Shown here: in pieces, positions 1 through 17,116 of the stretch | Numbering within the stretch: the stretch's first letter is position 1 | Layout of the letters: the number at the start of each line of letters is the position of its first letter | DNA from: Candidatus Susulua stagnicola | Lineage (GTDB): Bacteria > Omnitrophota > Gorgyraeia > Duberdicusellales > 4484-171 | Assembly: GCA_030765735.1 (NCBI GenBank) | Contig: JAVCBZ010000026.1 | Coordinates: 1 to 37,269 of the forward strand | Direction of reading: 5' to 3' | DNA: 37,269 nt | The notes under the pieces: model-generated | The model's database searches: none | What the model was told of the DNA's origin: nothing | The model's input: only the letters and a program-made list of their open reading frames with translations | Made by a program: the position numbers and the translations under genes

Positions 1-2065
1 CAACCCGCATTTCTCGCGTGATTGGCTTCATCGCAAAAGAAATATATTCGAGCACATCAAACAAATCACTTTTTTCAGCGTTAATTACTTTTTGTAAAGT
101 TATCAATTCATCTAACCCATACCCCGCATCTGCAAGCTTTCCAAGTAATGCCTTACGTGTATCCGGCTTAGACCAGATTCTACGCAGTTCATCTTCGCTT
201 TTAAAAAATTCCGGTAAAACTCCAAACATGGCCTGCAAAAACTCTTCTGCTGAGATTGGCTTACCATCAGCACTCCAAAATGAAGTAGAAATCATATGCT
301 GGATTTCGCGTTCTTTTCCATCACGTAATTTAATCTTAATCTTTTTCTTGGGAGGCTCGGGCGGTTCTGAAGGTTCAGGCGAATCTTTAGGTGATTTTGT
401 CTCTTTTTCTGTTGTTTCATCTATCGGTTCGCCATCCCATTCGGGATCAAGAAAATGATGATACGCATCTACAAAATCATAAATAGTAAAATACTCTTTT
501 CCGTCAAACAACCGTGTTCCACGCCCAATAATTTGCTTAAACTCAATTATGGAGTTAACTGGACGCATTAGTATAATATTACGAATATTACGAGCGTCTA
601 CACCCGTGGATAGCTTTTGTGAAGTAGTCAAAATAGTTGGAACAGTTTTCTCATTATCTTGAAATTCACGCAAATACTGCTCACCCAATGCGCCATCATT
701 GGCGGTTACACGCACGCAGTAATTCGGTTCTTTGCTTTGTTTATACTGATTAACTAAATCCCGCACTGCTAACGCATGATTCTGAGTAGAACAAAAAACA
801 ATGCCCTTTTCGCTTTGGTCGATTTCAGAAAGAAATATCTGTACTCGTTTGGCTTCACGTTCTTTAATTATTATGACCCTATTAAAATCTGGCTCTGTAT
901 AAATTTTTCCCTGCTCTATCTCGCCTTCAATAATCTGATCATCTGAGGTATAGATATAATCGTCTATTGTAGTTTGAATCCGCTTAACCTTAAACGGCGT
1001 CAAGAAACCATCGTTGATGCCCTCTTTGAGTGAATAGATATGCACCGGCTCGCCGAAATAACGATAAGTGTCCACATTATCTTTGCGTCTAGGCGTTGCA
1101 GTTAAACCAAGCTGAACAGCAGGCGAAAAATACTCCATAATGCCACGCCAATTGCCTTCGTCATTTGCACCCCCGCGATGACATTCGTCAATAATGATAA
1201 AGTCAAAATAGTCGTTCGGATATTGACCAAAATACGGAGCAAGGTTGCCATCCTTATCCTTGCCACTCATAAAGGTTTGAAAGATAGTGAAAAAAATGCT
1301 ACCACTGGTTGGGACTCGACCATTTCTACGAATTTCATGAGGCTTAATTCGAGCCAGAGCATCTTCTGGAAATGCTGAAAAGGCATTAAATGCCTGATCC
1401 GCGAGTATATTTCTGTCTGCTAAAAACAAAATCCGTGGCCTACGAGAGCCATCTCGTCTTAAATCCCAGCGTGTCTGAAAAAGTTTCCAAGCTATCTGAA
1501 AAGCAATAAAGGTTTTACCTGTCCCAGTAGCAAGTGTAAGCAATATACGCTGCTCGTTTTCGGCAATGGCAGCCACTGCATTATTGACAGCGATTTCCTG
1601 ATAATAGCGTACATCCTTTGTGCCACCTATATCTTCAAATGGCACCTGATTAAATTTATCTTGCCATTGATTCTGGGCAGCAAAGGTTTTATTCCAAAGT
1701 TCATCCGGCGATGGGAATGCGGTAATCAATCCTTCCTTGCCAGTTTTCATACAAATTTGATAAATCTCTTTACCGTTACTGGAATAAGTCCTATCAAGAT
1801 GAAGCATTCCGGCATAGTTCTTGGCTTGAGCCACACCTTCCCCTACTTTAAGTTCATCGCTTTTCGCTTCAATGACAGCTAGTTTACACCCCTTATAAAC
1901 CAACACATAGTCAGCAATCAAGGGTTTAGCTCTTCCACCACCGGTCTGGATTTTACCAGCAGTGATTTTATATTCCCGAAGGACTTTTGTATCTTCGACT
2001 ACACCCCAACCGCTTTCCTTCAACTTCGGGTCGATATATTCAGCTCTTGTTTCAGCTTCGTTCAT
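1..2065 (-). CDS. hsdR: Type I restriction enzyme R subunit (EcoAI-like), 3' end runs off window
   Basis: Manual translation from ATG at 2065: MNEAETRAEYIDPKL..., nuclease motif ADYVL...IEAK, Walker A ATGTGKT, DECH box, LTAT, QIIGRGTR; ATGA overlap with hsdS stop; absent from ORF track because no stop in window. Confidence 0.95.
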   Translation of the reverse strand, partial: MNEAETRAEYIDPKLKESGWGVVEDTKVLREYKITAGKIQTGGGRAKPLIADYVLVYKGCKLAVIEAKSDELKVGEGVAQAKNYAGMLHLDRTYSSNGKEIYQICMKTGKEGLITAFPSPDELWNKTFAAQNQWQDKFNQVPFEDIGGTKDVRYYQEIAVNNAVAAIAENEQRILLTLATGTGKTFIAFQIAWKLFQTRWDLRRDGSRRPRILFLADRNILADQAFNAFSAFPEDALARIKPHEIRRNGRVPTSGSIFFTIFQTFMSGKDKDGNLAPYFGQYPNDYFDFIIIDECHRGGANDEGNWRGIMEYFSPAVQLGLTATPRRKDNVDTYRYFGEPVHIYSLKEGINDGFLTPFKVKRIQTTIDDYIYTSDDQIIEGEIEQGKIYTEPDFNRVIIIKEREAKRVQIFLSEIDQSEKGIVFCSTQNHALAVRDLVNQYKQSKEPNYCVRVTANDGALGEQYLREFQDNEKTVPTILTTSQKLSTGVDARNIRNIILMRPVNSIIEFKQIIGRGTRLFDGKEYFTIYDFVDAYHHFLDPEWDGEPIDETTEKETKSPKDSPEPSEPPEPPKKKIKIKLRDGKEREIQHMISTSFWSADGKPISAEEFLQAMFGVLPEFFKSEDELRRIWSKPDTRKALLGKLADAGYGLDELITLQKVINAEKSDLFDVLEYISFAMKPITREMRV

Positions 2066-3222
2066 GATTGTGCTCCTGCAAGTTTACCATTAAAAGCTTT
2101 TTGAAGAATTGATTTCTTTAATTCCTCTAGATCTACCAGTTTTTGCTGGCATATGGCTTCAAGCTTTTTAGTTTCTGCGGAAAGCGTATCAAGTTTGCTA
2201 ACGATAGCTTTTTGCTCAAAGAGAGATTTTGGGAATGGCAAATAGTAACTATAAATAAAATCTTTTGAAATTCGTTTATGGCCAACTGCGCCCGTCATTA
2301 ATTTTTTACCCTCTTCTCTAAATTGATTACGTGTTAAAAAATAGTATAAATAATCAGGAATTATTTCACCTTTTGACCGAAAAACTATGTATTCACTTGA
2401 ACCAAACCCAACGCCATTCGTTAAATTGCGTGCAATTCCAATTTTTCCGTTTTCAAAGCAGGGTGTGATTTTAGCAAGCAGCACATCATCATCTGCAAAA
2501 TATGTATAACTGCTAAAGACATCTTTTAATTGTCTTTCTTTTGTGGCGTTTATTTCTTTGGTCAAGATACCCAAATCTTTCATAGGAAGAAATGTAACAG
2601 ATCCAGCATCTTTTAACTTTTCTTTCGTTTCCTTTTTTGGAGGTTTTATCACGCATACTTCTCCCAGAGTTTTTCCTCCCCATTCATCCCCCAAATTAGC
2701 AAAAACGCTTTGCAGATATGTTTCAAACAGCTCACGGGCATTTTGCAAATTCTTTTCAGTATTTCCTTTTGCCTTAGCAATTTTTTCAAAAAGTTCATCC
2801 AAAATCTTCACTATCCGCTTTTGTTCGGGTAGAAGCGGAAGTGGTATGAGAAGCTCTTGAAAATGTCTAATCCTTAATGATTTAGCTGTTGCTCCAACAG
2901 CAACTTGTTCAAAGTATTTATGATCAAAAATTAAGTAATATTCAACAAATCTTATGCTAACACTTTCATCAAAGTTAAAAAGCGCATAAGCTCTTTGATG
3001 AAGATCAAATTTTCCAGAATAATATCTTGGAAAGAATTCTGCTCCTTCTCCCGGAATTATTAAAGCCTTACAATCAAAAAGAAATCGCCTACTTCTTTTT
3101 ACCTTCTTTGATCGGTCAAAAAAAGCGTACTCACCGTTTTCAACTGCCTCGTTAGCGTTAGATTTACCAGTGCTAATTTTGCAAATACTTCCAAGCGTTT
3201 TTGTTTTCCAATTCTTCCTCAT
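2062..3222 (-). CDS. hsdS: Type I RM specificity subunit
   Basis: Two TRDs each followed by conserved P.P...EQK.IV..LD repeats; between hsdM and hsdR. Confidence 0.95.
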   Translation of the reverse strand: MRKNWKTKTLGSICKISTGKSNANEAVENGEYAFFDRSKKVKRSRRFLFDCKALIIPGEGAEFFPRYYSGKFDLHQRAYALFNFDESVSIRFVEYYLIFDHKYFEQVAVGATAKSLRIRHFQELLIPLPLLPEQKRIVKILDELFEKIAKAKGNTEKNLQNARELFETYLQSVFANLGDEWGGKTLGEVCVIKPPKKETKEKLKDAGSVTFLPMKDLGILTKEINATKERQLKDVFSSYTYFADDDVLLAKITPCFENGKIGIARNLTNGVGFGSSEYIVFRSKGEIIPDYLYYFLTRNQFREEGKKLMTGAVGHKRISKDFIYSYYLPFPKSLFEQKAIVSKLDTLSAETKKLEAICQQKLVDLEELKKSILQKAFNGKLAGAQS

Positions 3223-4673
3223 ACCAAATCTCTAATCGTCTTTAAAATATCAACTGCTTCTTTACCCAGTATTTTCATTTCAGCCAATATTTCTTTTGGT
3301 TTTCGCAGAATAGTTTTGTCTTTTTTATTCGGATTTTTCACAGACAAATCAAATGTACCCTTATCAACATCAGCCACGTTTACTGTCCAAGAGTTTTCGG
3401 ATTCTTCTTTTTTCTTCTGCAATTTTACAAACTCTGCCAGATCATTTTCATTAAGCGGATTAGTCTTGCCGAGATTGCGATTAAGATTAAGTTGATAGTA
3501 CCAAATTTTCTTCGTCTTAACCCCTTTATCAAAGAAAAGCACCACAGTCTTCACACCCGCACCGGTAAAAGTACCACCGGGTAAATCCAGAATGGTGTGC
3601 AGATTACAATTTTCTAAAAGCAGTTTTCGTAAACTGGTCGAAGCGTTGTCCGTATTAGAAAGAAATGTATTTTTAATTACAACGCCTGCTCGCCCGCCAG
3701 CCTTAACGATTTTGATAAAGTGTTGAAGGAAAAGAAATGCAGTCTCACCAGTTTTGATTGGAAAGTTTTGCTGAACTTCTTTACGAATCCCCGCACCAAA
3801 AGGTGGATTGGCTAAGACAATATCGTAACGATCTTTTTCCTGAATATCAGTAATGTTTTCTGATAACGTATTAGTATGCACAATATTGGGTGTTTCTATA
3901 CCATGCAAAATCATATTCATTGTACCAATAATGTAAGCAAGAGATTTGATTTCTTTACCGTAAAAGGTTTTTTTCTGCAAAATTTTGGCTTGTTTAGTTG
4001 TTAAGTTCTTATTGGTTTTAAGATATTCAAAGGCTTCGCATAAAAACCCAGCCGAACCTACTGCTCCATCGTAAATTTTATTTCCAATAGTAGGAGCAAC
4101 CACTTCCACAATGGTTTTAATAAGCGGGCGAGGTGTATAATATTCTCCGCCATTTCTGCCTGCGTTGCCCATATTCTTGATTTTGGCTTCATATAAATGC
4201 GACATTTCATGTTTTTCTTTGTGAGCCCTAAACCGAAGTTCATCAATACGATTAATTACTTCTCGTAGATTATACCCGCTTTGAACTTTATTTTTAAGTT
4301 CACTAAAAATTTCACCTATCTTGTATTCAATCGTATCTGCGCTTTCAGCGCTTGCTTTAAACTTTTTAAAGTAGGGGAATAGCTTATGGTCAGCAAAATC
4401 TTTTAAATCGTCTCCAGTAAGTGCCTTGTGGTGATCAAGTTTGCCATCCTTACCTTTAGGAACGGCCCATGTTTCCCATTGATACTCAGGCTTTATTATG
4501 CCTGTATAAGTTTTACCTGATAATTTTGCCGCTGTTTTCTTATCCTTCTCTAGATCATCTAGATATTTCAAAAAAAGAATCCAAGAAGTTTGCTCTACAT
4601 AATCCAGCTCGCTAGAACATCCTGCGTCTTTATGGAGAATATCGTCAATATTTTTAAAAGTTTGTTCAAACAT
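3219..4673 (-). CDS. hsdM: Type I RM N6-adenine methyltransferase (ATG at 4673 preferred; GTG at 4679 alternative)
   Basis: GEYYTPR, motif I YDGAVGSAGF, motif IV NPPF; ATGA overlap with hsdS. Confidence 0.95.
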   Translation of the reverse strand: MFEQTFKNIDDILHKDAGCSSELDYVEQTSWILFLKYLDDLEKDKKTAAKLSGKTYTGIIKPEYQWETWAVPKGKDGKLDHHKALTGDDLKDFADHKLFPYFKKFKASAESADTIEYKIGEIFSELKNKVQSGYNLREVINRIDELRFRAHKEKHEMSHLYEAKIKNMGNAGRNGGEYYTPRPLIKTIVEVVAPTIGNKIYDGAVGSAGFLCEAFEYLKTNKNLTTKQAKILQKKTFYGKEIKSLAYIIGTMNMILHGIETPNIVHTNTLSENITDIQEKDRYDIVLANPPFGAGIRKEVQQNFPIKTGETAFLFLQHFIKIVKAGGRAGVVIKNTFLSNTDNASTSLRKLLLENCNLHTILDLPGGTFTGAGVKTVVLFFDKGVKTKKIWYYQLNLNRNLGKTNPLNENDLAEFVKLQKKKEESENSWTVNVADVDKGTFDLSVKNPNKKDKTILRKPKEILAEMKILGKEAVDILKTIRDLV

Positions 4674-5583
4674 TGGCACTTCTCTTGATAGTAAAGGGTT
4701 TCTTTAATTGAGAGCTTATTATATTATGGCTGTGAAGGTTTAATTTTTTAGAAAAAATCATGATTTCTTTACCTATTTTTGATTGATATGCACTGTGCTG
4801 GATTGTAAATTTTCTTTTGCGCATTTTTGTGTAAAGCTTGCGTATATACGAAACGTCATCATACGTCATAATCCATTTTAACGATGAATCCTGCAAAAAT
4901 TTCCTTAGTTTTTCATGGTCGCTATCTTCGTAGTGGTTAAGATAGAGAAGTTTACCTTTTTGATAATAAGGCGGATCAAGAAAAATAAAATAATTGCTCA
5001 TGTTTTTACATCGTTCTATCTTTTTTAAAAGGCTAATTCCGTCAAGATTATAGACTTTGATTTTATTCTTATATCTCTTAATTCGCTTCAAGCGCTTAAC
5101 AAGCGTGCTTTTAGTAAAACGGACGTCAAGCTTCCAGTCTCCGGATTGATCCATTCCCCCAATTGGACCCCCTTCAATGATCCCCGATCTATTTGTTCTA
5201 TTTAGAAAAAGTGTTGCAAACGCCAATTCATGATCAGAGGACAATGCCCTATTATATATCTCTTTCTGTCTTTTCCATTCCTCGATAGTAATCTTCACTT
5301 CTAGTACTCTTTTTATTAAATATTCACTATCAGAAAGAGCGGTTTTCCAAAAGGCATAAATGGCAGAATCAAAATCATTGATTATAATTCTGTTAACTTG
5401 TCCTGCAAATAATAAGGACAGCGCTGCCCCTGCTCCTCCTGCATATGGTTCAACGAGAATTACTTTACCCTTGTCTTCTTCTGTGAAATTTTTTTCAATT
5501 GTCTTAGCAAAAAACTTTGCAAGACGAGTCTTTCCTCCTGGATACCTAATAGGACTAACAAATTTTAGTTTTGCTTTTTCCAT
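4666..5583 (-). CDS. D12-class (Dam-family) DNA adenine methyltransferase
   Basis: SPIRYPGGK, EPYAGGAG, IIIND, LFLNRTNRSG, DPPYY motifs. Confidence 0.9.
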   Translation of the reverse strand: MEKAKLKFVSPIRYPGGKTRLAKFFAKTIEKNFTEEDKGKVILVEPYAGGAGAALSLLFAGQVNRIIINDFDSAIYAFWKTALSDSEYLIKRVLEVKITIEEWKRQKEIYNRALSSDHELAFATLFLNRTNRSGIIEGGPIGGMDQSGDWKLDVRFTKSTLVKRLKRIKRYKNKIKVYNLDGISLLKKIERCKNMSNYFIFLDPPYYQKGKLLYLNHYEDSDHEKLRKFLQDSSLKWIMTYDDVSYIRKLYTKMRKRKFTIQHSAYQSKIGKEIMIFSKKLNLHSHNIISSQLKKPFTIKRSANV

Positions 5584-5584
5584 T

Positions 5585-6991
5585 CTACGTTTCTTTCTTT
5601 TCAGGAACTGACGATAAAATAAACATAAATAACGGCTTTAACTCATCCCACCCTTGTTGCACAGCCTCTCTATTGCTGAAAAAATAATGGCTATGATTTA
5701 ATTGGTGCATAAAATTAGCAGTATACCCCATCATGCTTACACTACCTTTTGTTTGTTCGATTTTCGTTATAAGATTTTTTAGCGCTTTAAATTTCGAACC
5801 AGCAAGAAGCTTAACTTTTTCATTCCCCTTAAATTCTTCTAAAGCATCCTTTAAAAAGGAGTATTCTCCTTTTTTCTTTATTGCTATCTCATGTAAATCA
5901 AAGAAGGCTTTGAGTGAGCATTCTAAAAAACTCCTTAATAAATCATGCGCAGCATTTGGGAAACCCCTATCATTACTGATGGATATTCTTTCTATCTCTT
6001 TGTACATGCGTTCTATTGCGGGAAATGGAAGGTAAAAATTAATACCCTGAGTATTCAGCTTATTCTTGGTGATTTTAGTTGGTTTAACCGGTACAAAATC
6101 ACTCGCCATAGCTGTTGTTTTGAAGGACAATTTTTTGGGAACAATTTGGTCAATGTACGTTTTTCTCTCTGTACTATCACTAATTTTTTTCCGAGATGTA
6201 ATTATTTTGTCCACAATGTCAGTAATGATAATTGTATAGGCGCGATCAAATTCTTGTGATTTGGGAATTGTTACCTCTCCCGTTTCAGGGTTAAACTGAA
6301 GTCCCATTTTTTCTTGTACATATTTATCTGAATACAATCTTTCCAGGGTTGTAATATCAAAATTTCGCTTATTGTTTATTTTTTTACGCACTTCATCGGA
6401 AAGCTTCGGTAAGGATGTTGCAATCTGATGCATTTCATACATCCTAATATATGCAGGAATATTAACTCCTTTATATCTTTTAATTAAATTTTGAACAGAT
6501 CTACCTTTTTCTTTTTGGGCATAATAAAAATAGGCTCTTCTTAATGCACTCCATGGACGTTTGGTATTTTTTGTATGTTTTGCGGCTAAATACTGCATTG
6601 CCGCTTCTCTGTTGGGTGCAACTCTAACCGTTATGCTAAGAATAGGGCTTCTTTCAAGCATTAATTTTCTAATTTTTTCTTTGTATTTTCGAGGAACATG
6701 AATTGGGTCTATCATTGCTTGCAAAGAGGCCACTCTTCGACTTCCTTCAAAAACAACCCAATTTTTGTTTTCTCTAACAACTACAGGGCTTTCGTCGGGG
6801 AAAAACCCATTTTCATAAATACTGAGAAGAATTTGCATAGCCTTTTCATTAACAAATAAATCTCTAACGATTTCATCTTGCGTTTTGCGTTCCGTCTCTA
6901 GTCGAATATTCTCTGGATCAAGCAAAAGAGAAGCAACCAAGACAGTAATTGGTTTCCATTCTTGCTGATAATTTATAAGTTTCTTTTTCAT
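5585..6991 (-). CDS. ParB/Srx-like N-terminal domain protein with putative HEPN-like C-terminal domain; candidate defence effector
   Basis: LLLDPENIRL...YENGF...PVVV...VVFEGSRRVASL (ParB-like GxRR); C-terminal FPNAAHDLLRSFLE...MHQLNHSH helical region resembling HEPN. Confidence 0.6.
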   Translation of the reverse strand: MKKKLINYQQEWKPITVLVASLLLDPENIRLETERKTQDEIVRDLFVNEKAMQILLSIYENGFFPDESPVVVRENKNWVVFEGSRRVASLQAMIDPIHVPRKYKEKIRKLMLERSPILSITVRVAPNREAAMQYLAAKHTKNTKRPWSALRRAYFYYAQKEKGRSVQNLIKRYKGVNIPAYIRMYEMHQIATSLPKLSDEVRKKINNKRNFDITTLERLYSDKYVQEKMGLQFNPETGEVTIPKSQEFDRAYTIIITDIVDKIITSRKKISDSTERKTYIDQIVPKKLSFKTTAMASDFVPVKPTKITKNKLNTQGINFYLPFPAIERMYKEIERISISNDRGFPNAAHDLLRSFLECSLKAFFDLHEIAIKKKGEYSFLKDALEEFKGNEKVKLLAGSKFKALKNLITKIEQTKGSVSMMGYTANFMHQLNHSHYFFSNREAVQQGWDELKPLFMFILSSVPEKKET

Positions 6992-7050
6992 GATGCTCCT
7001 TTTATTTTACTTTTATTTACCCAAAAGTTCTTATTGTATTTCTCTATCTT

Positions 7051-7245
7051 TTATCTCCCCACTAATTCATCTATCTTAATTTTAAAAGCATTTGCAAGTT
7101 TTGTTAATGTCTCTAGGGTTGGGTTTTTGTTTGACCCCGATTCTATCTTGATAAGAGTGCTGTAGGTAATTCCGGCTTTTTGGGCGAGTTGTTCTTGAGA
7201 CAAATGGTGTTTCTTCCTAAGTTTTTTAATATTTGCGGCGAGCAT
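7051..7245 (-). CDS. XRE-family HTH transcriptional regulator (C-protein-like)
   Basis: IKKLRKKHHLSQEQLAQKAGITYSTLIKIESG..NPTLETL; AGGAG RBS. Confidence 0.9.
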   Translation of the reverse strand: MLAANIKKLRKKHHLSQEQLAQKAGITYSTLIKIESGSNKNPTLETLTKLANAFKIKIDELVGR

Positions 7246-7259
7246 AAAATCTCCTATTT

Positions 7260-8186
7260 CTATTTTATCTTTTCCATAATGCTTAAAATCCCTTTATCAA
7301 GTTGTGAGAAAGCAAACCATTTTTTACCAAGATCTTTTAATGATGCACCAATGTGATATACGACCTGCTTATCAATAATTAAAAACCTATCATGGGATTT
7401 ATTAAATATTTTAATTTCAATCGAATGATATTGCGCGTTATGTTTTTTTAAATCAAGGTGTAATTGTTTCGAAATTTGTTTGGTGAAAATAGTAGCAGAA
7501 ACGCCTTTTTTACGTTTATCAAGTAATGTTAAAACAGATTCATCAATATAATTATCAATCAATATAATAGATTTTTTTGCTTTTTTAATAATCTTTGAAA
7601 CAAAAAGATACGCTTCAAACACTTGTCCGTCAAAAAATATCCCCTGTTTAGGCTGAATATTTTCTTTTTCTAAGGCTTTAAAAACTTTCTCAAATTTTTT
7701 ATTTGTCTCTAGTTTATGCTCTAATTGTTTTTGCTCAACGTTATCAAGCCGTTGAAAAAGAACAGCGTTTGTTTGAATAAAACGACGCATTTGTACAAAA
7801 GCATTCATAATTTGGATACTAATCCTAATCGCTGTGTCACTTTTTAACACAGCAGATAGCATAGCTACCCCTTGTTCAGTAAAAACATAGGGCAAGTATT
7901 TTCGGTGTTTTCCTCTCTCATCTTTTAAGGTCGCAAAATGCGACCTTAAAGAATCATTAGATGCCTCAATTTGTGACATCCATTGATTAAGCTCTTGCTT
8001 TGTTAATTGAAACATAAATTCTTTTGGAAAACGATCAATGTTCCGCTTAACCTGTTCATTAAGTCTTTTTATTTCTACTCTATATAATCCAGCTAAGTCT
8101 CTATCAAACATAATCTGCCGTTTGCGAATTGTATGGATTTTTGATCTAATTTGTTTTTCGGTGGAATTTACTAACTCTTTTTTCAA
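7260..8186 (-). CDS. ORF6N-domain DNA-binding protein with C-terminal PLD-like domain
   Basis: IMFDRDLAGLY...LNEQVKRNIDRFPKEFMFQL...LPYVFTEQGVAMLS (ORF6N); C-terminal IIDNYID...SHDRFLIID...YHIGASLKDLG; TTG start with AGGAG RBS. Confidence 0.85.
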   Translation of the reverse strand: MKKELVNSTEKQIRSKIHTIRKRQIMFDRDLAGLYRVEIKRLNEQVKRNIDRFPKEFMFQLTKQELNQWMSQIEASNDSLRSHFATLKDERGKHRKYLPYVFTEQGVAMLSAVLKSDTAIRISIQIMNAFVQMRRFIQTNAVLFQRLDNVEQKQLEHKLETNKKFEKVFKALEKENIQPKQGIFFDGQVFEAYLFVSKIIKKAKKSIILIDNYIDESVLTLLDKRKKGVSATIFTKQISKQLHLDLKKHNAQYHSIEIKIFNKSHDRFLIIDKQVVYHIGASLKDLGKKWFAFSQLDKGILSIMEKIK

Positions 8187-8212
8187 CTTAAAACTCCTAT
8201 TTTTTTACTTGA

Positions 8213-8249
8213 CCCTTCGATGCGCTCATTGCATTCGCTTACTCAGGAC
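8213..8249. repeat. REP-like element CCCTTCGA...CTCAGGAC
   Basis: CCCTTCGATGCGCTCATTGCATTCGCTTACTCAGGAC; shares CCCTTCGA end with the element at 37037. Confidence 0.45.
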
Positions 8250-8274
8250 CTGCGGAAAATCTTTTAGATTTCCC

Positions 8275-8303
8275 TTGACAAACTATCAATATATTGCTAA
8301 TAT
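8275..8303 (+). promoter_or_regulatory. Sigma70-type promoter for small ORF/recombinase
   Basis: TTGACA-17 nt-TAATAT with extended -10 TG; repeated ACTATCA/TTATCA motifs nearby may be operators. Confidence 0.55.
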
Positions 8304-8387
8304 TGTATTAATAGATTACTATCAGTTTATTGCTCTTAATTTAATGATATTTTATCTCGTCTTTAGAAATTATCAAGTATTTTAAAT

Positions 8388-8561
8388 ATGGCTATTAAAC
8401 AGCTAACTAAACATACTAAATCACCTGCTCAGCCAATAAATTTTAATTGGCCTGACAATCCTGCTGTCAAAAATCTGCTGGATGTGATCTCCTCTATTCT
8501 CGCTGAAGAATATGTAGAGATAGCCAAAAAGAACCATGATGTATTCTCAAATGAAAAATAA
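8388..8561 (+). CDS. 57-aa hypothetical protein upstream of recombinase (candidate directionality factor)
   Basis: Manual translation MAIKQLTKHTKSPAQPINFNWPDNPAVKNLLDVISSILAEEYVEIAKKNHDVFSNEK; amphipathic helix; downstream of promoter; too short for the ORF track. Confidence 0.6.
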   Translation: MAIKQLTKHTKSPAQPINFNWPDNPAVKNLLDVISSILAEEYVEIAKKNHDVFSNEK

Positions 8562-8684
8562 TATTAACCCGGATGTATCCCTCCTCGCTGTATATAGGGT
8601 AAAATGTCTTCGACTTTTTACCCTAACTCGGAGGGATTTAATTCGGACTACAGGTTTTTCTCTGAAAAACCTAAGTCTCATTAA

Positions 8685-10397
8685 ATGAAAGTTGCCATAT
8701 ACGCTCGCTATTCTTCTGAAAACCAAAGCGCCAAAAGCATTGACGACCAAATACGCGTATGCAAAGACTATGCCGGAAAAAATAACTTTCTTGTAGAAGA
8801 CGAACACGTCTATGTTGATAAGGCAATTTCAGGGTCTATTGTTGACCGGCCCGGATTGCAGGCTTTGGAAAAGGCTGCCGAGAATAAAGAATTTGATACT
8901 GTGATTGTAGATGACTTATCCCGGATATCACGAAGCAACCATCAAATGTTGACTTTAGTTCTTAAATTCAACTACCTGCAAATTAGAATTATCTCTGTAT
9001 CAGACGGTATCTCTACAGATGATGACAATTCTAAATTAGGCATTCATCTGCGCGGGCTTATGAATGAACTTTATCTTGATGACCTTAAAAAGAAAACCAT
9101 GCGTGGATTAGAAGGCCAGAAAATCCGCGGTTTTAGTGTAGGCGAAAATGTATTTGGCTATTTTACCGAACCGGTCGGCGAGCTAAGGATTGGCAAAAGG
9201 GGTGAAGCAAAGCATGACGGGATGATCCATAAAATAAATCCTGAGCAAGCCGATATAGTAAAAAGGATATTTAATGAGTTCTCCGGAGGTAAAAGCTTAA
9301 GAAAACTTGCCGCATCGCTTAATGAGGACAAAATCCCTACTAAACGCGGGCTTTCCGGTGGTTGGAATATTTCCAGTTTACGCAGAATCTTACAAAATAA
9401 AAAATATATTGGTATCTGGATATGGAAAACAACCAAAACCGTCCGAGATCCTCTGACCGGGAAAAAGAAAATTGTTTCGCGTCCCGAAAAGGAGCATTTA
9501 TCCACACGCAGAAAAGATTTAATAATTATTGAGCAGGATATTTGGGATAAAACCAGGGAAAGGTGGTCTAAAATGGTAGGCGCCTATCCTCTATCTAAAA
9601 AGGCAAGAGCAAACGGCCAAAAACAAAAAAGTTATGTTCATTGTGCCCCAACTCATCTTTTTTCGGGAACAATGAAATGCCACTGTTGTAACGGGCCAAT
9701 TGTTCTTGTCAGCGGAAAAGGCGACGGTTACTATGGTTGTTATAATTTTCGCCGTAAAACCTGTACTAATAAATTATTAGTATCCCGTAAGCGTGTAGAA
9801 AAAACCATCCTCACTGCGCTACAAGAAAAGGTTTTGACTCTTAATAATATAAACTACATTTATAAGAATCTGGAAACCCAAATAGCAAAAAGATTAAACA
9901 ATAACCCTGAGGCCATAAAGAAGAAAAGAGCCCAGCATGATAAGCTTTCTTTAGAAATGCAGAATTACTTGAATTACATTAAGTTAGGTAACTTTTCAAA
10001 GGCCGTATCCGAAGCATTAAAGCACTGTGAATCGAGGTTTGAGCTGTTAACAGAAGAAATAAAATCCCTGGAATTCCAGAAGAGCAACACCTTTAAATCC
10101 CCTCCCCTAGAGTGGGTGAAACACCGTCTAGAACGTTTACAGGAAACACTTAGCAAGAAGGCCACCTCAGCAGCCCTTGTCTTAAAAGGGCTCCTATCCC
10201 CCATATCCCTTGAGCCTGTATTAAGCCCTGATAATGACTTCTATTCAGTAGTTAATGCTCAGGAAGGAAGGTTTAAACCCTATTACGTGGCCCATATAAA
10301 AGCACAAACCCTTGCTCTTCTCGATGAGAAGAACAAGGGTTCGAATTGGTTTCAGTGGCGGGGTCGATGGGATTCGAACCCACGATCACCTGCGTGA
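8685..10397 (+). CDS. Large serine recombinase (integrase)
   Basis: YARYSS catalytic Ser, DDLSRISR, recombinase domain, zinc ribbon CHCC...YYGC...C, coiled coil. Confidence 0.95.
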   Translation: MKVAIYARYSSENQSAKSIDDQIRVCKDYAGKNNFLVEDEHVYVDKAISGSIVDRPGLQALEKAAENKEFDTVIVDDLSRISRSNHQMLTLVLKFNYLQIRIISVSDGISTDDDNSKLGIHLRGLMNELYLDDLKKKTMRGLEGQKIRGFSVGENVFGYFTEPVGELRIGKRGEAKHDGMIHKINPEQADIVKRIFNEFSGGKSLRKLAASLNEDKIPTKRGLSGGWNISSLRRILQNKKYIGIWIWKTTKTVRDPLTGKKKIVSRPEKEHLSTRRKDLIIIEQDIWDKTRERWSKMVGAYPLSKKARANGQKQKSYVHCAPTHLFSGTMKCHCCNGPIVLVSGKGDGYYGCYNFRRKTCTNKLLVSRKRVEKTILTALQEKVLTLNNINYIYKNLETQIAKRLNNNPEAIKKKRAQHDKLSLEMQNYLNYIKLGNFSKAVSEALKHCESRFELLTEEIKSLEFQKSNTFKSPPLEWVKHRLERLQETLSKKATSAALVLKGLLSPISLEPVLSPDNDFYSVVNAQEGRFKPYYVAHIKAQTLALLDEKNKGSNWFQWRGRWDSNPRSPA

Positions 10398-10434
10398 CAG
10401 GCAGGGGACTTAAGCCAGACTAATCGACGACCCC
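10356..10434 (-). tRNA. tRNA-Asp(GTC), CCA encoded
   Basis: Cloverleaf: acceptor GGGGTCG/CGACCCC, anticodon arm CCTGC-CTGTCAC-GCAGG, T loop TTCGAAT, ends GCCA. Confidence 0.95.
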
Positions 10435-10446
10435 GATAGATTTAAG

Positions 10447-10475
10447 ATTATAAGTAAAAAGCCTGTTGTTGTCAA
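10447..10475 (-). promoter_or_regulatory. Consensus sigma70 promoter for tRNA-Asp
   Basis: Minus strand TTGACA-17 nt-TATAAT, 12 nt upstream of the tRNA. Confidence 0.8.
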
Positions 10476-10529
10476 ATTAAAAAATCAAATTTTTGTTGCC
10501 CTTGTCCTCCACCAAATAATATAAAACCA

Positions 10530-11155: not shown

Positions 11156-11728
11156 CTATTTATCCGAATTAAGAATAATACTTTCTAGTTCCTTTAAGGT
11201 ATCTTTTATATTTCTGTTTATTACCGAATAATCATAATCTTTGGAAAGCTCCACTTCTTTTTTTGCAAGTTTTACTCTTTTCTTAATAACTCCTTTATCC
11301 TCATCCCTTTTTTCCATTCGCCGATAAAGTTCTTTTTCTGACGGTGCAACAAGAAAAATAGTAGTTACTTTTTTAGCCTTTAAATCTTTTTTAAGGCACA
11401 TTCCTCCTTTAACATCAATGCATAAAACAAGGTTTTTACCTGTTCTTTTGGCTAACCCATATAAAATCTTTGGCGTTCCGTAATAGTTTTCTAATACCTT
11501 CTGGTTTTCAAGAAAAAATTTATTTTTCTTTAGTCGTAAAAACTCATCTTCTTCAATAAAAAAATAGTCTTTTCCATCTTTTTCTTTATCTCGTTTTTTC
11601 CGAGTAGTTATGGTAACCCCTTTTACAAAATCTTTTTTTATTCTTTCCCGCGCAAACAATTGCTCAACAATGGTAGTTTTACCTGCCCCCCCTGGTCCAG
11701 AGATAATAAAAACTTTTGGATTTCTCAT
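11156..11728 (-). CDS. gmk: Guanylate kinase
   Basis: ISGPGGAGKTT, TTR..R..E.DGKDYFF, YYGTP. Confidence 0.95.
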   Translation of the reverse strand: MRNPKVFIISGPGGAGKTTIVEQLFARERIKKDFVKGVTITTRKKRDKEKDGKDYFFIEEDEFLRLKKNKFFLENQKVLENYYGTPKILYGLAKRTGKNLVLCIDVKGGMCLKKDLKAKKVTTIFLVAPSEKELYRRMEKRDEDKGVIKKRVKLAKKEVELSKDYDYSVINRNIKDTLKELESIILNSDK

Positions 11729-12513
11729 TCTATATTCTGCGCCTGTTCTTTTATCCTTTCTAAATAATTTTTTCCTTCAATTATTAGCAAAGCTAAATTT
11801 TTCTTTTTGGTTTTGCTAGAAGCCGCATTTAATTCTCTTAAAATTTCTTGAGTTAAAAAATCTAAAGCTCTTCCTTGGGGCGTCCATTGCTTAGAATTAA
11901 TTTTGCTTTCTAATTTACTTATATAGAACAATGTTAAAGAAATCTCTTCATCAATATCTTCTCTCCCGTTTTCAATTTTATTAACTTTAGGTTTTTCTTT
12001 TTTTATCTTCTCAACATTGTTTTTTAATTTGCTTAGGTTCTCTATAATTTCCTTTTTTATGGCTTTTCCTTCTTTCTCTTTAAATTTTACAAACTTGTTT
12101 AAGACTTCTTTTATCGCTAAAGGGATTAACCCCTTATCTCTTTTTCCGCTATGGCTTAAAGAGATTGCTTGTGGCAAATTTAAAATATCACTTATTTCAA
12201 TATCAGCCTTTAGATTATACTTTTTATTTAAGGACTTTATCTGAGTAACATAACGACAAACAACCTCTTCGTCAACATATACTTTTTTAATTTGTGGCTT
12301 AGCTGAAAAAATAAAAACTTCTACCTTACCCCGATTAATCTTTTTTTTAATTTCTCGCTTAATTTTTTCTTCTAATAAAAGATCTTCAATTGGTAAATTA
12401 TGGATACAAATATCTAAATATTTAAAATTTGAAGACCTTAAAATTACTTGAGTAGTTTGCTCTCCTCTGCTTACTTGTGCAGAAGCATAAGCGGTCATTG
12501 ATCTCATATCCAA
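11725..12513 (-). CDS. yicC: YicC/YloC-family endoribonuclease
   Basis: MRSMTAY N-terminus, GRALDFLTQEILRELN, ERIKEQAQNIE C-terminus; upstream of gmk. Confidence 0.9.
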   Translation of the reverse strand: MDMRSMTAYASAQVSRGEQTTQVILRSSNFKYLDICIHNLPIEDLLLEEKIKREIKKKINRGKVEVFIFSAKPQIKKVYVDEEVVCRYVTQIKSLNKKYNLKADIEISDILNLPQAISLSHSGKRDKGLIPLAIKEVLNKFVKFKEKEGKAIKKEIIENLSKLKNNVEKIKKEKPKVNKIENGREDIDEEISLTLFYISKLESKINSKQWTPQGRALDFLTQEILRELNAASSKTKKKNLALLIIEGKNYLERIKEQAQNIE

Positions 12514-13010
12514 ATCTCCTTGTTGCTATTTTCTTGAGCTATTTTTTTTGAAGGATAAAGTTCGCAAACAATTTCATCAGGGTCAAACCATAATTTTATT
12601 TCTCTCTCAGCTTCCTCTATACTACTTGAAGCATGAATTACATTTTCAAACAAACCGGTTGTTAAAATTCTCCCATAAGCTCCTCTTATACTTATCGGAT
12701 CAGCCTGTTCAGGATTGGTTGCCCCAGCTATATCTCTAACTTTTTTAATGGCATCCTCTCCCCAATAAATCAAAGGCATAACTCTATTTTCCCCATGAAG
12801 CTGCCCTGTAATATACTTAGCTAGTTCTGGATAAAAAGATTCTTTTTGAAGATGATGATAGTGCTTATTAGCTAATTCAATATCAACCTTTACTATTTTT
12901 GCTCCAATTATTTTCAGTTTAGCTTCAGAAAGCCTGCTTAGAATATTCCCGGTAAGAGACTTTTTTAATCCATCTGGTTTAATAATAACTAAAGTAGCTT
13001 CATCCCTCAT
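12504..13010 (-). CDS. ndk: Nucleoside diphosphate kinase
   Basis: TLVIIKPDG, GATNP...SIRG, NVIHASS, EREIKLWF. Confidence 0.95.
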   Translation of the reverse strand: MRDEATLVIIKPDGLKKSLTGNILSRLSEAKLKIIGAKIVKVDIELANKHYHHLQKESFYPELAKYITGQLHGENRVMPLIYWGEDAIKKVRDIAGATNPEQADPISIRGAYGRILTTGLFENVIHASSSIEEAEREIKLWFDPDEIVCELYPSKKIAQENSNKEIWI

Positions 13011-13034
13011 TTTCTTTGAACCTCCTTATAAACT

Positions 13035-13862
13035 TTATTTTAATTTTTTAATAATTCGTTCTAGATCCTCTAAGCTGTAATACTCAACAACAATTCTACC
13101 ACGATTTTTCTTTTTGTTGAAGACTTTAACTTTAGTTCCTAATAATTTTTGAAGTCTCTCCTCTAGCTCAACTATAAAAGGATCGCTCTTCTTTTTCTTT
13201 TTAGACACCATCCTAACTTTATTTTCTATCTCTCTAACCGACATTCCTTCTTTTAAAATCTGATAAAATATTTTTTCTTGGGTTTGGATTTTATCAGCTC
13301 CTAAGATTGTTCGGGCCTGAGTTCGAGTAATCATTCTTTTACGCACAGCCTCTTTTATTTTTTCTGGTAATTTAAGTAATCGTAAAACATTTACCACTGT
13401 GGTCTTATCTTTGCCAACAAATTTAGCAACATCTTCTAATGAAAAATCAAAATCTTCGATTAACCTTTTAAAAGCTTCTGCTTCTTCTATGGGATTTAAA
13501 TCTTGTCTCTGAAGGTTTTCAACAATAGCTAAAACAAAAGCCTCTTTATCGTCTAGTTCCTTAATAATAGTTGGTATCTCCTTGAGCCCCAAAGACTTAG
13601 CAGCTTCATACCTTCTTTCTCCAGCAACAATTTCATAGCTTCCTCCACTTATTTCTCTTGCTACAATTGGTTGAATAAATCCTTTTTCTTTGATTGATCT
13701 AGTTAGTTCTCCTAATTCTTTTTCACTTATTTCTTGTCTAGGTTGGCATTTAGCAGGCTTTACTTTATCTAATGATAAGCGAATGAATTCTCTTGGTAAC
13801 ATTGCTGCTGTCTTTTTAGGAATAAGTGCATCCAATCCTCTACCTAAAACCTTTCTATCCAT
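13035..13862 (-). CDS. parB: Chromosome partitioning protein ParB
   Basis: LGRGLDALI, IVAGERRY, ENLQRQDLNPIEEA, HTH. Confidence 0.95.
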   Translation of the reverse strand: MDRKVLGRGLDALIPKKTAAMLPREFIRLSLDKVKPAKCQPRQEISEKELGELTRSIKEKGFIQPIVAREISGGSYEIVAGERRYEAAKSLGLKEIPTIIKELDDKEAFVLAIVENLQRQDLNPIEEAEAFKRLIEDFDFSLEDVAKFVGKDKTTVVNVLRLLKLPEKIKEAVRKRMITRTQARTILGADKIQTQEKIFYQILKEGMSVREIENKVRMVSKKKKKSDPFIVELEERLQKLLGTKVKVFNKKKNRGRIVVEYYSLEDLERIIKKLK

Positions 13863-13913
13863 TTCCCCTCCTAGTTCTCCTATTAAATTAATTCAATTGC
13901 TAACCATAACTTG

Positions 13914-14705
13914 TTATTGGACTTCGATAGTTTTTTGTCCAACTTCTATCCTTTCTTTTAATACTTCCTGGGCTAAATTAAAATAGGCTTTGCTACCTAC
14001 ACAACCAGAATCATAAAAACATATTGGCTTACCAAAGCTAGGTGCTTCAGCAAGTCTTATATTTCGTGGCACAATAACATTAAATGTTTTTTTCTGAAAA
14101 AAATTCCTTACCTCCTCTATAACCTGTAAGGTAAGACGAGTACGAAAATCACCCATAGTAAGAAGAACTCCCTCTATCTCTAAAGACGGTTTTAGCCTCT
14201 CGCGAACTAATTCTATTGTATTAACCAATTTAGAAACTCCTTCCAAAGCATAATATTCACATTGGATTGGGATAATTAAGCTATCTGAAGCTACCAAAAC
14301 GTTTAATGTAAGTAACCCTAAAGATGGCGGCGCATCAATAATAATATAAGAAAAATCATCTTTTACTTGTTTTACTTTATCTTGTAGTTGCATCTCTCTA
14401 TTTTCAATATTTACTAACTCAACTTCTCCTCCGGTAAGAGAGATATCTGAAGGACTAATATATAAATTGGGCCATTTAGTAGGATAAATACTTTCTGAAA
14501 TACTAGTTTTACCCATGATTGTATCGTAAATTGAATTTTTGTCTTGACTATCAAACCCAACTCCTGAAGTAGCATTGCCTTGAGGATCCATATCTATAAG
14601 CAAAGTTTTTTTACCGGCTAAACCTAAAAGTGAGCTTAAATTAATAGCTGTAGTAGTTTTGCCTGTCCCCCCTTTTTGATTACAAATACCAATTATTTTG
14701 CCCAT
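13914..14705 (-). CDS. parA: Chromosome partitioning ATPase ParA/Soj
   Basis: NQKGGTGKTTT, DMDPQGNAT, DAPPSLG, PRNIRLAEAPSFGKP. Confidence 0.95.
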   Translation of the reverse strand: MGKIIGICNQKGGTGKTTTAINLSSLLGLAGKKTLLIDMDPQGNATSGVGFDSQDKNSIYDTIMGKTSISESIYPTKWPNLYISPSDISLTGGEVELVNIENREMQLQDKVKQVKDDFSYIIIDAPPSLGLLTLNVLVASDSLIIPIQCEYYALEGVSKLVNTIELVRERLKPSLEIEGVLLTMGDFRTRLTLQVIEEVRNFFQKKTFNVIVPRNIRLAEAPSFGKPICFYDSGCVGSKAYFNLAQEVLKERIEVGQKTIEVQ

Positions 14706-14725
14706 TTTTATTTACGAGTTTTTAC

Positions 14726-14741
14726 GTTTTCACGTGGAAAC
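14726..14741. promoter_or_regulatory. parS-like site 1
   Basis: GTTTTCACGTGGAAAC near-palindrome with CACGTG core, 20 nt upstream of parA. Confidence 0.75.
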
Positions 14742-14801
14742 TTTAAAAGCTTACTGATTTCTTACCTTTTTCTGTTTCCCTTTTCAGGTAAAACTTAATC
14801 T

Positions 14802-14831
14802 ATTCTAATACACCATAGGTAGTATTGTCAA
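14802..14831 (-). promoter_or_regulatory. Putative parAB promoter
   Basis: Minus strand TTGACA-18 nt-TAGAAT. Confidence 0.55.
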
Positions 14832-15053
14832 GCTTTTTGTATTAACCTCCTGCAAAAGGTAAATTGTAACTCATATTGCGACAACATTCAACTCAAAATT
14901 CCTATTCTGTTTTTTGTTGGTTTTGCTACCTTACAAAATAACAGATTTTGAGAGCTATGGGCATTTTTTACCCTCTAACTGTCGCACTTGTGATTACAAT
15001 CTTCTTCCAAAGAAAGGGAGTTGACCCCTTTTATTCTACAGCTCGCTGATTGC

Positions 15054-15069
15054 GTTTTCACGTGGAAAC
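15054..15069. promoter_or_regulatory. parS-like site 2
   Basis: Identical GTTTTCACGTGGAAAC. Confidence 0.75.
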
Positions 15070-15139
15070 TTTAAATATACAGTTCCCCATTGCTTTTTTG
15101 GGTTTAGCTTTTTAGATATACAAAAAAATAGCTTTAGAA

Positions 15140-16600
15140 TTATTTTACTTGCTGAGCTTTAGATAGGCGTGATTGGTAACTTAAGGTAAAGATATTCTGT
15201 ACGAGCCAATAAATGGTCAATGCTGCTGGGAAACCATAGAATATAACTCCAATAAACACAGCAAAGAACAACCCCATAGACTTTTGTTGGGATGAAGCTG
15301 TAGGGGAGGATACAGTTATTTTTTGTTGTACTATCCCCATGATCATTAACAAAACAGGAAGAAGATTTAAATAATTTATAGGTGCTGGGAAAGGAAGTTG
15401 CAATAAATGATCTGGAGAGGCAAGATCTTTAATCCATAAAAAACTAGCCCCCCTAAATCCTATAAAACGATAAACAATCTGATAAAAAGCCATGATTATC
15501 GGTATCTGAAAAAATAAGGGTAAACAACCTCCTAAAGGATTTATTTTATGCTTACGGTATAGTCCAAGTGTTTCTTTTTGAATCTTTTGAGGATTATCCT
15601 TATATTTTGTTTTGAGCTCTTCAACTTCAGGTTGGATTTCTTGCATTTTCCTCATTGCTTTGCTACTTTTAGAAGTAAAAGGGAAGAGGACTAAAGAGGC
15701 TAAAGCTGAAAACACAACAATACTGACTCCCCAATTTTTAAAAATACCATAAAAGAAATAAAGAAGCTTTATCATCCATACAGCTATTCCATTAAAAAAC
15801 CCATAATACATAATTCCTTGCAACCCAAAGACTTCCAATTCTTTTTCAACCTGCGGGCCTAGATAAAGAAAGATTTCGTTGTTGGGAGACATTAAATATA
15901 GGTGTGCTTTTTTCTTGCCTTCGCTTACCCATTTTAGATCATAATCTCCTTTGAGCAAAGACATAGCATAATATCTATCTCGGGCTCCAGAAAACTTTAC
16001 ACTATTATAGGTAACCTCTTTTATTTTTCTTGGGGAAATTCTTTTTATTTTCTTATCTTGAGAATAAAAAATTTCTTGATACCTTTGGTCTAAAACCTTG
16101 GGACTCAGATAATTAGAAAATAAAACTACTGGCGTTGCAGGAAGAGGATTGATCTTTATTCCTAAAACATAATCTTGAAAATTAAATTCTTTTGTTTCTC
16201 CTTCTGGACCCTTAAATTCAAGAGTCTCACCTCTAAGTTTAAAAGTGAATTCTTTTTCCCGATCTTCAGGCAAAAGCCCTATATTTTGAAAAGGTAATTC
16301 ATATTCTTCTTCTCCTATAGCAATTTTTTTAATATAACCACCTGTAGTAGAATATGTTACAACAAAATTACCTACAGAAATTTTTGGCAATTCTAGGCTT
16401 TCTTCCTCATCTTCTAAAACTAGAGGAGTAGCCTCTTGAGATATTTCAGCAGGAAAAGTGTTAAACCTTGTTTCTACAGCTTGTTGTTGGCTATTTCCTT
16501 GAACTGGAGCTGGTTGTGGAACAAATTTGGCAACAACATGCGAATAAACAAGAAAAAACACAAGAGTTATTGAAAATGCTAAAAATAGTCGTTTTTCCAT
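15140..16600 (-). CDS. yidC: Membrane protein insertase YidC
   Basis: N-terminal TM, periplasmic domain, NWGVSI, KINPLGGCLPL, FLWIKDLASPD, LTIYW. Confidence 0.95.
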   Translation of the reverse strand: MEKRLFLAFSITLVFFLVYSHVVAKFVPQPAPVQGNSQQQAVETRFNTFPAEISQEATPLVLEDEEESLELPKISVGNFVVTYSTTGGYIKKIAIGEEEYELPFQNIGLLPEDREKEFTFKLRGETLEFKGPEGETKEFNFQDYVLGIKINPLPATPVVLFSNYLSPKVLDQRYQEIFYSQDKKIKRISPRKIKEVTYNSVKFSGARDRYYAMSLLKGDYDLKWVSEGKKKAHLYLMSPNNEIFLYLGPQVEKELEVFGLQGIMYYGFFNGIAVWMIKLLYFFYGIFKNWGVSIVVFSALASLVLFPFTSKSSKAMRKMQEIQPEVEELKTKYKDNPQKIQKETLGLYRKHKINPLGGCLPLFFQIPIIMAFYQIVYRFIGFRGASFLWIKDLASPDHLLQLPFPAPINYLNLLPVLLMIMGIVQQKITVSSPTASSQQKSMGLFFAVFIGVIFYGFPAALTIYWLVQNIFTLSYQSRLSKAQQVK

Positions 16601-16601
16601 A

Positions 16602-16942: not shown

Positions 16943-17077
16943 CTTTTAATTATAATGGTTTTCCCTATTTTATTGCCTTGCTTTTAATTTTAAGGCCCTA
17001 CTCCCAAACAATATTAGTGATGGATCCAATAAAACCCTTCGGGTATCTGTCTTCGACAGATTGGATGCATAGGTGAA

Positions 17078-17105: not shown

Positions 17106-17116
17106 CTATAAAAATG

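Follow-up and report, generated by a model that had tools for sequence, protein, structure and literature searches.

A gene pair for a ParB/HEPN-like protein and an adenine methyltransferase in Candidatus Susulua stagnicola as a very probable, divergent member of the PD-lambda-5 anti-phage family

What kind of system is formed by two adjoining genes of the uncultured bacterium Candidatus Susulua stagnicola, one for a protein with ParB-like and HEPN-like features and the other for a predicted adenine DNA methyltransferase, and has a system of this kind been described before? The two genes, referred to here as A and B, are located on contig JAVCBZ010000026.1 (assembly GCA_030765735.1), of which positions 1 to 37,269 were analysed; this whole stretch of 37,269 nt is called the window. 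An earlier note, written from the DNA letters of the window, had read the pair as a two-gene defence system that matched no system it could name. Here, we report that the pair is very probably a divergent new member of the PD-lambda-5 anti-phage family, and we consider how the two proteins may work together.

Both open reading frames (ORFs) are present as the earlier note had laid them out, although it did not mention that they lie on the minus strand, as do all genes around them (Table 1). The TAG stop codon of A (5587..5585) and the ATG start codon of B (5583..5581) are separated by the single base 5584, in agreement with the 1-nt spacing given earlier, and the sequence AGGAG precedes the start codon of A by 6 nt. 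The motifs that had drawn attention to the pair are all found in the two translations, namely VFEGSRR (residues 80–86 of A), LLRSFLE (residues 351–357), MHQLNHSH (residues 428–435) and, in B, DPPY. Since the quoted residues of A fall on positions that are conserved in the family, these motifs are more than chance resemblances.

The identity of the pair emerged from a comparison with the defence profiles of PADLOC-DB 2.0. The A protein matched 21 PD-Lambda-5_A models, the best of which was PDLC03998 (E = 7.9e-40), and was aligned end to end with PDLC04017 (E = 4.9e-37, residues 6–459 against 4–464 of 473) and PDLC04008 (E = 2e-31, residues 16–456 against 6–445 of 449). The B protein matched PDLC04018, the PD-Lambda-5_B model, with E = 4.6e-108 and 359 bits (residues 7–290 against 3–282 of 291), which exceeds the score of the best generic MTase_II model (289 bits). 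The view that the pair belongs to no nameable system thus fails, since both PADLOC and the table of the discoverers described below give the name of an already described system, PD-lambda-5, whereas the view that it is a two-gene defence module agrees with these profiles and with the conserved pairing of the genes.

The discovery of PD-lambda-5 came from a functional selection in E. coli, with ECOR7 as the source of the system (Vassallo et al. 2022, PMC9519451). A supplementary table of that study describes it as "ParB/HEPN, methyltransferase", two proteins within 264599-267059 of an ECOR7 contig, and the prototype proteins are RCQ13837.1 and RCQ13838.1. HHsearch by the authors identified ParBc in 5A at 96.4%, together with a weak DUF4145/HEPN match, and MethyltransfD12 in 5B at 99.9%. 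The system was assayed in a host deleted for the mrr-containing region; the two-gene clone altered the efficiency of plating or the size of the plaques with each of 10 phages except one, with stronger protection against T-even phages, and the discoverers call it a "compacted RM+Abi system", that is, restriction–modification (R-M) plus abortive infection (Abi) (PMC9519451). A 2024 preprint groups PD-lambda-5 with HEPN-containing and DNA-modifying systems, and a 2024 paper restates the RM/Abi interpretation. In the accessible literature on PD-lambda-5, further titles of which resemble genome surveys, no published mechanism was found. The domain reading of the earlier note, made from raw sequence, reproduces the published description of the system.

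The full-length matches of A, together with the B partner, make the PD-lambda-5 call specific. A tblastn search of phage and plasmid records with A returned partial matches in 17 phage and 3 plasmid records (22–34% identity, mostly N-terminal), and none of these records covers 80% or more of A. One candidate, Escherichia phage vB_EcoM-12474III (P2-like), was rejected as PD-lambda-5. Its module (2965..6001), which adjoins the portal gene in the P2 hotspot, encodes a 372-aa ParB-N protein, a 330-aa protein without a family match and, on the opposite strand, a C5 cytosine methylase. Of the PD-Lambda-5_A profiles, the 372-aa protein matches just the N-terminal third, and it also matches PDC-M38A; the module is a different ParB-plus-methylase module. 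Matches to the A profiles that are confined to the N-terminus are therefore not diagnostic.

How widespread the A protein is, and whether B accompanies it, was addressed by searches of other genomes. A word-indexed search gave 285 homologues of A at E ≤ 1e-3 among 7988 candidates scored; the closest are 84–86% identical, and most others among the matches listed are 43–49% identical. A profile of 35 homologues, searched against 1.84 billion cluster representatives, gave 4419 matches at E ≤ 1e-3, 2352 at E ≤ 1e-10 and 408 at E ≤ 1e-30. With one genome per species scanned, 47 loci were obtained, which belong, by the titles of their records, to Patescibacteria/Saccharibacteria, Bacteroidota (Sediminibacterium, Ferruginibacter, Olleya), Candidatus Velamenicoccus, Zixiibacteriota, Chloroflexota-type, Desulfobacteraceae, Burkholderiales and Omnitrophota-type genomes, and others. 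By tblastn, 46 of the 47 loci have a B homologue (40–86% identity) directly downstream of A and in the same orientation, the exception (L047) being a contig that ends 315 nt past a partial match to A. In the 38 loci for which both ORFs were picked as neighbours, the start of B ranges from 52 nt ahead of the stop codon of A to 74 nt past it. The linkage of A and B is obligate. The earlier note had suggested examining the neighbourhoods for conservation of the pair; the methylase co-occurs with the A homologues, and the pairing therefore holds.

The genes around the pair are far more variable. Among 114 neighbouring ORFs of at least 90 aa, taken two upstream and one downstream from 46 loci (L016 was excluded, its A ORF not having been picked), no third conserved gene recurs. 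An R-M or type IV restriction gene is present among the three nearest neighbours in 17 of the 46 loci, and genes for Fic, TIR or GmrSD-like proteins, recombinase genes or ordinary metabolic genes occur in others. Only three loci have type I genes beside the pair, the neighbours elsewhere being type II or type III systems, Mrr, Fic, TIR or housekeeping genes. Of these three, the 86%-identical relative L001 shares the A-B-hsdM order of the window, a Patescibacteria metagenome-assembled genome (L014, 4535..9453) carries the pair between hsdM and hsdS, and in L019 the pair is placed after hsdS-hsdR. The position of the L014 pair is that which prrC occupies in EcoprrI. In a distant Flavobacteriia/Chitinophagia-type branch with 23–26% identity to A, a gene for a 517-aa AAA_15-type ATPase stands between A and B (L042, 7214..8767), or B is followed by a gene for an ATPase of the AAA_15/AAA_21 type, about 520 aa long (L046, 8311..9888); these two loci are possibly a three-gene variant of PD-lambda-5.

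The N-terminal half of A was identified by structure. At the level of sequence families, Pfam and NCBIfam gave no family for A at E ≤ 0.01, Pfam ParB_N was unmatched, and a profile of 35 A homologues gave 0 matches at E ≤ 1 among PDB sequences; across the 35 aligned homologues, Pfam at E ≤ 1 returned weak matches to GmrSD_N (9 of 35), ddrB-ParB (2), DUF5677 (3) and HEPN_RnaseLS (1). A was modelled with AlphaFold2 from 35 homologues (mean pLDDT 83.1), and a Foldseek comparison of the model with the PDB gave 16 matches at E ≤ 1e-3; among the matches listed, all are ParB, Noc or KorB, for example 7ol9 (3.6e-5) and 7bnr (ParB-CTPgammaS, 4e-5). The alignments cover 198–283 columns, and those to truncated ParB, Noc and KorB, which consist of the N-domain plus the helix-turn-helix (HTH), cover 261–283 columns. 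Matches to sulfiredoxin are weaker (E of 0.035 or more). In addition, G83, R85 and R86 of A are invariant in the 35 aligned homologues. The GxRR site is the nucleoside triphosphate (NTP) phosphate-binding motif, and its arginine is needed for NTP binding across diverse ParB-fold proteins (PMC12704722). The ParB/Srx-type N-terminus proposed by the earlier note agrees with these fold matches, and a ParB/Srx fold with an intact GxRR is supported at the fold level by the model. The helical middle of A (Table 1) may bind DNA, as suggested by the same modelling.

A single residue sets this copy apart from its family. Codon 84 of A (6740..6742) is AGT for Ser, and AAT for Asn is one transition away. 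The motif is present in 116 of the 120 homologues listed, 115 of which read [DE]GNRR, so that the window protein alone reads EGSRR; the two relatives that are 84–86% identical to A (P0003 and P0004) carry Asn at position 84. The earlier note was thus right that Ser stands here in place of the usual Asn. The substitution may be without effect or weaken the protein, or it may stem from an error in the sequence.

The C-terminal 154 residues of A were modelled alone on 47 sequences, i.e., the window copy and those of 46 loci, which gave a domain of six helices with a pLDDT of 88.1 and a pTM of 0.84. In a structural search of the Atlas, this domain reached TM scores of 0.61–0.66 (by query) with clusters of DUF4145, PF05168 HEPN, EC042_2821/DUF3644 and Abi_C, while the AbiA C-terminal HEPN cluster scored 0.51. 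The best PDB match by TM score was 2hsb, deposited as a HEPN-domain protein (probability 0.95, TM 0.64 by target); another was 2q00 (probability 0.90, TM 0.62 by target), which we take to be a HEPN protein. A DUF4953 cluster that was returned for the C-terminal part by an Atlas feature search (best score 0.80) was discarded as being at chance level by the calibration of the tool. Residues E332, D350, R353, E357 and H433 are invariant and N432 nearly so among the 47 C-terminal domains, and R353, E357 and H433 are also invariant across the 35 aligned full-length homologues. The invariant R353 lies in the first long helix, within D-x-x-R-x-x-x-E, and H433 is preceded by Asn432. A complex prediction with two copies of the domain gave a median of 0.27 against a mark of 0.42, which says nothing on dimerisation either way. 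Since the fold is moderately supported and the defining Rx4-6H motif is absent, "degenerate HEPN-like" is a fair label for this modelled domain. The earlier reading of a degenerate HEPN C-terminus therefore stands in part: HEPN families are the top structural look-alikes, but the motif is absent, and the call is weaker than that of the ParB-like domain. Families in which the His is kept and the Arg is missing ("conserved H but lacks R") appear in a survey of HEPN proteins (Anantharaman 2013, PMC3710099).

The B protein matches Pfam PF02086 with E = 7e-20 and has intact motifs I and IV (Table 1). Its score with TIGR00571 (Dam) is 56.7 bits, which is under the NCBIfam curated cutoff of 114.85. 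To judge from these profile scores, B is a D12-class enzyme and not a Dam orthologue; the earlier label of a Dam-family methylase holds at the level of the D12/Dam class. That no type II endonuclease is visible next to the methylase is likewise true, but the earlier note passed over the complete type I R-M operon that begins within the final codons of B.

In this operon, the start codon of hsdM (GTG 4679 or ATG 4673) overlaps the end of B (stop codon 4668..4666), and the overlaps amount to 8–14 nt for B/hsdM, 4 nt for hsdM/hsdS and 4 nt for hsdS/hsdR. The type I genes are translationally coupled to the end of B, and A-B-hsdM-hsdS-hsdR form one five-gene operon with A and B at its 5′ end. A promoter scan of positions 1..10500 gave 31 sites against 31.8 expected in shuffles; since the count equals the shuffle expectation, the scan is uninformative on operon structure. 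The type I R-M operon is context and no defining part of PD-lambda-5. Upstream of A, the product of the small XRE-type gene, which PADLOC models label "Control_protein" (6.4e-9) and HTH_VI (1.4e-17), possibly controls the operon, as its family assignment suggests. However, the genes upstream of A vary among related loci, and this gene is no conserved part of the system.

The island that carries the pair has a serine recombinase gene and tRNA-Asp at its boundary. A perfect TTGACA-17-TATAAT (10475..10447) stands immediately upstream of tRNA-Asp, which is followed by tRNA-Val, tRNA-Leu and tRNA-Cys. Past the tRNA cluster, positions 11156..24808 are the chromosomal origin region, with gmk, yicC, ndk, parB, parA, yidC, dnaA, dnaN, gyrB and gyrA. 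The GC skew flips its sign near 18–19 kb of the window, and the defence island is some 7–8 kb from the likely oriC. The GC content of the window is about 31–43%.

Table 1. Positions in the window of the gene pair, its predicted domains and motifs, and the surrounding features
Feature	Coordinates	Strand	Basis or remark
Gene A	5585..6991	minus	468-aa ORF, ATG start, PD-Lambda-5_A homologue
Predicted architecture of A	5585..6991	minus	ParB/Srx-fold N-domain, helical HTH-like middle, HEPN-like C-terminal domain
Predicted ParB/Srx CTPase-fold N-domain	6572..6952	minus	Residues ~14-140; AlphaFold2 model and Foldseek
EGSRR, equivalent of the P-motif/Box II (GxRR) of the ParB fold	6734..6748	minus	Sequence read
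Predicted helical middle	6143..6547	minus	Residues ~149-283; aligns with the DNA-binding part of ParB/Noc/KorB
Predicted HEPN-like helical bundle	5612..6022	minus	Residues ~324-460; separate domain model and structure searches
R353-E357 codons	5921..5935	minus	Conserved in the C-terminal domain
H433 codon	5693..5695	minus	Conserved, next to N432
Gene B	4666..5583	minus	305-aa ORF, PD-Lambda-5_B homologue, predicted D12/Dam-class N6-adenine DNA methyltransferase
B motif I, EPYAGGAG	5428..5451	minus	Translation read
B motif IV, DPPY	4966..4977	minus	B residues 203-206
hsdM	3219..4679	minus	Pfam N6_Mtase/HsdM_N; PADLOC MTase_I 4.5e-157
hsdS	2062..3222	minus	Pfam Methylase_S; PADLOC Specificity_I 3e-84
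hsdR	2..2065	minus	Cut by the window edge; Pfam ResIII/EcoEI_R_C/HSDR_N; PADLOC REase_I 8.2e-126
XRE-type HTH gene	7051..7245	minus	64 aa; Pfam HTH_3 E 2.3e-19; 59 nt upstream of A
ORF6N protein	7260..8186	minus	308 aa; PF10543 E 1.7e-31; PADLOC candidate PDC-S05 full-length E 7.8e-127
Serine recombinase	8685..10397	plus	570 aa; divergent from A; overlaps the 3′ part of tRNA-Asp by 42 nt
Strong hairpin	10305..10343		Read through by the recombinase ORF
tRNA-Asp	10356..10434	minus	With the recombinase ORF, right-hand limit of the defence island
Chromosomal parB	13035..13862		Genuine parB; parAB together 13035..14705
dnaA	17204..18538		Then dnaN, gyrB, gyrA on the other strand

While the pair resembles several known systems, we note where each comparison ends. 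In both the PD-lambda-5 prototype and the window, a ParB/HEPN protein of ~470–500 aa is followed by a D12-class adenine methyltransferase, and the domain calls made here agree with the HHsearch results of the discoverers (ParBc, DUF4145/HEPN, MethyltransfD12). However, the prototype belongs to an enterobacterial prophage, whereas the host of the window copy is an uncultured low-GC bacterium, and this copy is strongly diverged, fused to a type I R-M operon and altered to Ser84 in its GNRR motif. The closest working analogy for A is offered by GmrSD/BrxU/SspE, in which an N-terminal ParB/Srx-fold NTPase and a C-terminal nuclease effector share a single chain (DUF262 plus DUF1524 HNH), and in which the ParB-like NTPase governs the C-terminal nuclease according to the modification state of the DNA. 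The weak GmrSD_N matches among the A homologues point the same way. In contrast, the putative effector of A is a HEPN-like bundle instead of HNH, its motif is [DE]GNRR instead of DGQQR, and A is paired with its own methylase, whereas GmrSD attacks modified DNA and is without a cognate methylase. The ParB/Noc/KorB clamps are the best structural matches of the N-terminal 260–280 residues of A, and GxRR is kept; A differs in falling below Pfam ParB_N and in having neither a ParB C-terminal dimerisation domain nor a parA partner. In PrrC/EcoprrI, MAE_28990 and Saro_3948, a HEPN module is tied to DNA methylases and restriction genes. The fusion of the window pair to a type I operon resembles that of prrC, but A has no ABC-ATPase and no Rx4-6H, and no Pfam HEPN model passed. 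The HEPN survey mentions a HEPN family whose gene accompanies those of a DNA methylase and a nuclease of the ParB type (PMC3710099).

How might the pair work? Which partner senses what, and what is cut, we infer from the domains and from the comparisons above, and we propose a sensor–effector mechanism tentatively, giving it somewhat less than an even chance. B would methylate host DNA as a self mark; that the prototype was assayed in a host lacking mrr suggests that methylation by B occurs in vivo. A would then act as a single-chain sensor–effector, its ParB/Srx N-domain (probably NTP-gated) and its helical DNA-binding region reading the methylation of the B sites. On unmethylated invading DNA, A would fire its C-terminal HEPN-like nuclease, which would stop the phage, possibly at a cost to the cell; nicking of DNA by the ParB-fold domain is a further possibility. 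The earlier proposal of a methylation-guarded sensor/effector is plausible and fits the suggestion of the discoverers. In a more specific form, an NTP-gated ParB clamp at unmethylated adenine sites would switch on a non-canonical HEPN nuclease, so that methylation status is converted into RNA cleavage; this version is speculative, and we consider it rather unlikely.

Several observations weigh against the assignment or against the sensor–effector proposal. Membership in PD-lambda-5 rests on the PADLOC profiles, the scores of A are moderate (135 bits on the best PADLOC model for 468 aa), and N-terminal-only matches to the A models also arise in another system, that of vB_EcoM-12474III. The HEPN-like call is opposed by the absence of a canonical Rx4-6H, no Arg being present 4–6 residues before H433 in the 47 C-terminal domains, by a Foldseek search of the C-terminal domain that gave nothing at E ≤ 1e-3 in the PDB, and by the Pfam HEPN models, none of which is significant for A or its 35 aligned homologues. 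Given Ser84 against Asn in 115 of the 116 listed motif-bearing homologues, this copy could have altered or weakened activity. Most restriction enzymes fail to cut T4 DNA, and the stronger protection by the prototype against T-even phages is unlike the prediction for a plain adenine-methylation R-M system. Finally, in the accessible PD-lambda-5 literature no experiment was found on the cleavage target of A, the methylation site of B or protection by methylation.

A different division of labour within A, which takes the wording of the discoverers literally and is the main rival, would combine R-M and Abi in one protein. Here, the ParB-like domain would itself be a DNase acting on unmethylated DNA, and the HEPN domain would be an independent RNase-type back-up for the event that restriction fails, like PrrC/EcoprrI. 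ParB is among four endoDNase folds found fused to HEPN in R-M contexts, and ParB-HEPN fusions such as Saro_3948 are listed (Anantharaman 2013, PMC3710099); DNA-nicking ParB/Srx proteins are cited in PMC12839542, and the invariant polar residues are kept in both domains of A. However, in structure the N-terminal half comes closest to NTP-gated proteins that clamp or bind DNA (ParB, Noc, KorB) and not to nucleases, and the conserved GxRR is an NTP phosphate-binding motif (PMC12704722). In the model, these clamp-like neighbours favour a sensor role of the ParB domain over a DNase role only slightly. This alternative, which we judge possible though doubtful, differs from the sensor–effector mechanism solely in the role of the ParB domain, and the present data do not separate the two.

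The remaining alternatives concern the status of the pair. It would be an accessory of the adjoining type I R-M system, a guard or anticodon-nuclease-like module restrained by HsdMSR, to which B adds a further modification activity, if the overlap of B with hsdM, the five-gene operon and the arrangements in L001 (A-B-hsdM), L014 (between hsdM and hsdS) and L019 (after hsdS-hsdR) reflected a functional dependence; yet type I genes stand beside the pair in just 3 of 46 loci and the two-gene clone in E. coli protects alone (PMC9519451), which makes an accessory role improbable. We consider it similarly improbable that the copy is decaying or inactive, with N84S disabling the ParB-fold switch and leaving the pair as a remnant. 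The Asn of nearly all listed motif-bearing homologues, P0003 and P0004 included, speaks for decay, but both ORFs are full length and intact, every other invariant residue is retained, both motif arginines are present, Ser is a conservative polar replacement for Asn, and a one-base change seen in a single sequence could also stem from faulty sequencing or assembly. Least of all do we expect that the pair has no role in immunity, being instead a selfish addiction module, a post-segregational killer of the kind that many R-M systems are, or a ParB-like regulator with an orphan epigenetic methylase. Such a role would suit an integrative island with a serine recombinase, and recombinases or transposases occur near the pair in four loci, i.e., L013 (IS200-like transposase and resolvase), L036 (resolvase), L041 (IS200-like transposase) and the window. 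However, protection against phages is the trait by which the prototype was selected and validated (PMC9519451), the surroundings are rich in defence genes (R-M or type IV genes in 17 of 46 loci, with TIR, Fic and GmrSD in others), and genuine chromosomal parAB genes exist elsewhere in the window; moreover, addiction and defence are compatible.

Taken as a member of PD-lambda-5, the pair has little discovery value, because this type of system was found experimentally in 2022 and standard defence profiles recognise the present copy. Its residual value is comparative, in that it belongs to a large family spread over many phyla, in which the methylase is always kept beside the ParB/HEPN protein. 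G83, R85, R86, D350, R353, E357 and H433, together with the natural Ser84 variant, are targets for mutational and biochemical work on the mechanism. If the conversion of methylation status into RNA cleavage were true, PD-lambda-5 would be an R-M-like system whose "R" is no DNase, and the window would hold a five-gene, two-layer operon in which such a system is joined with type I R-M.

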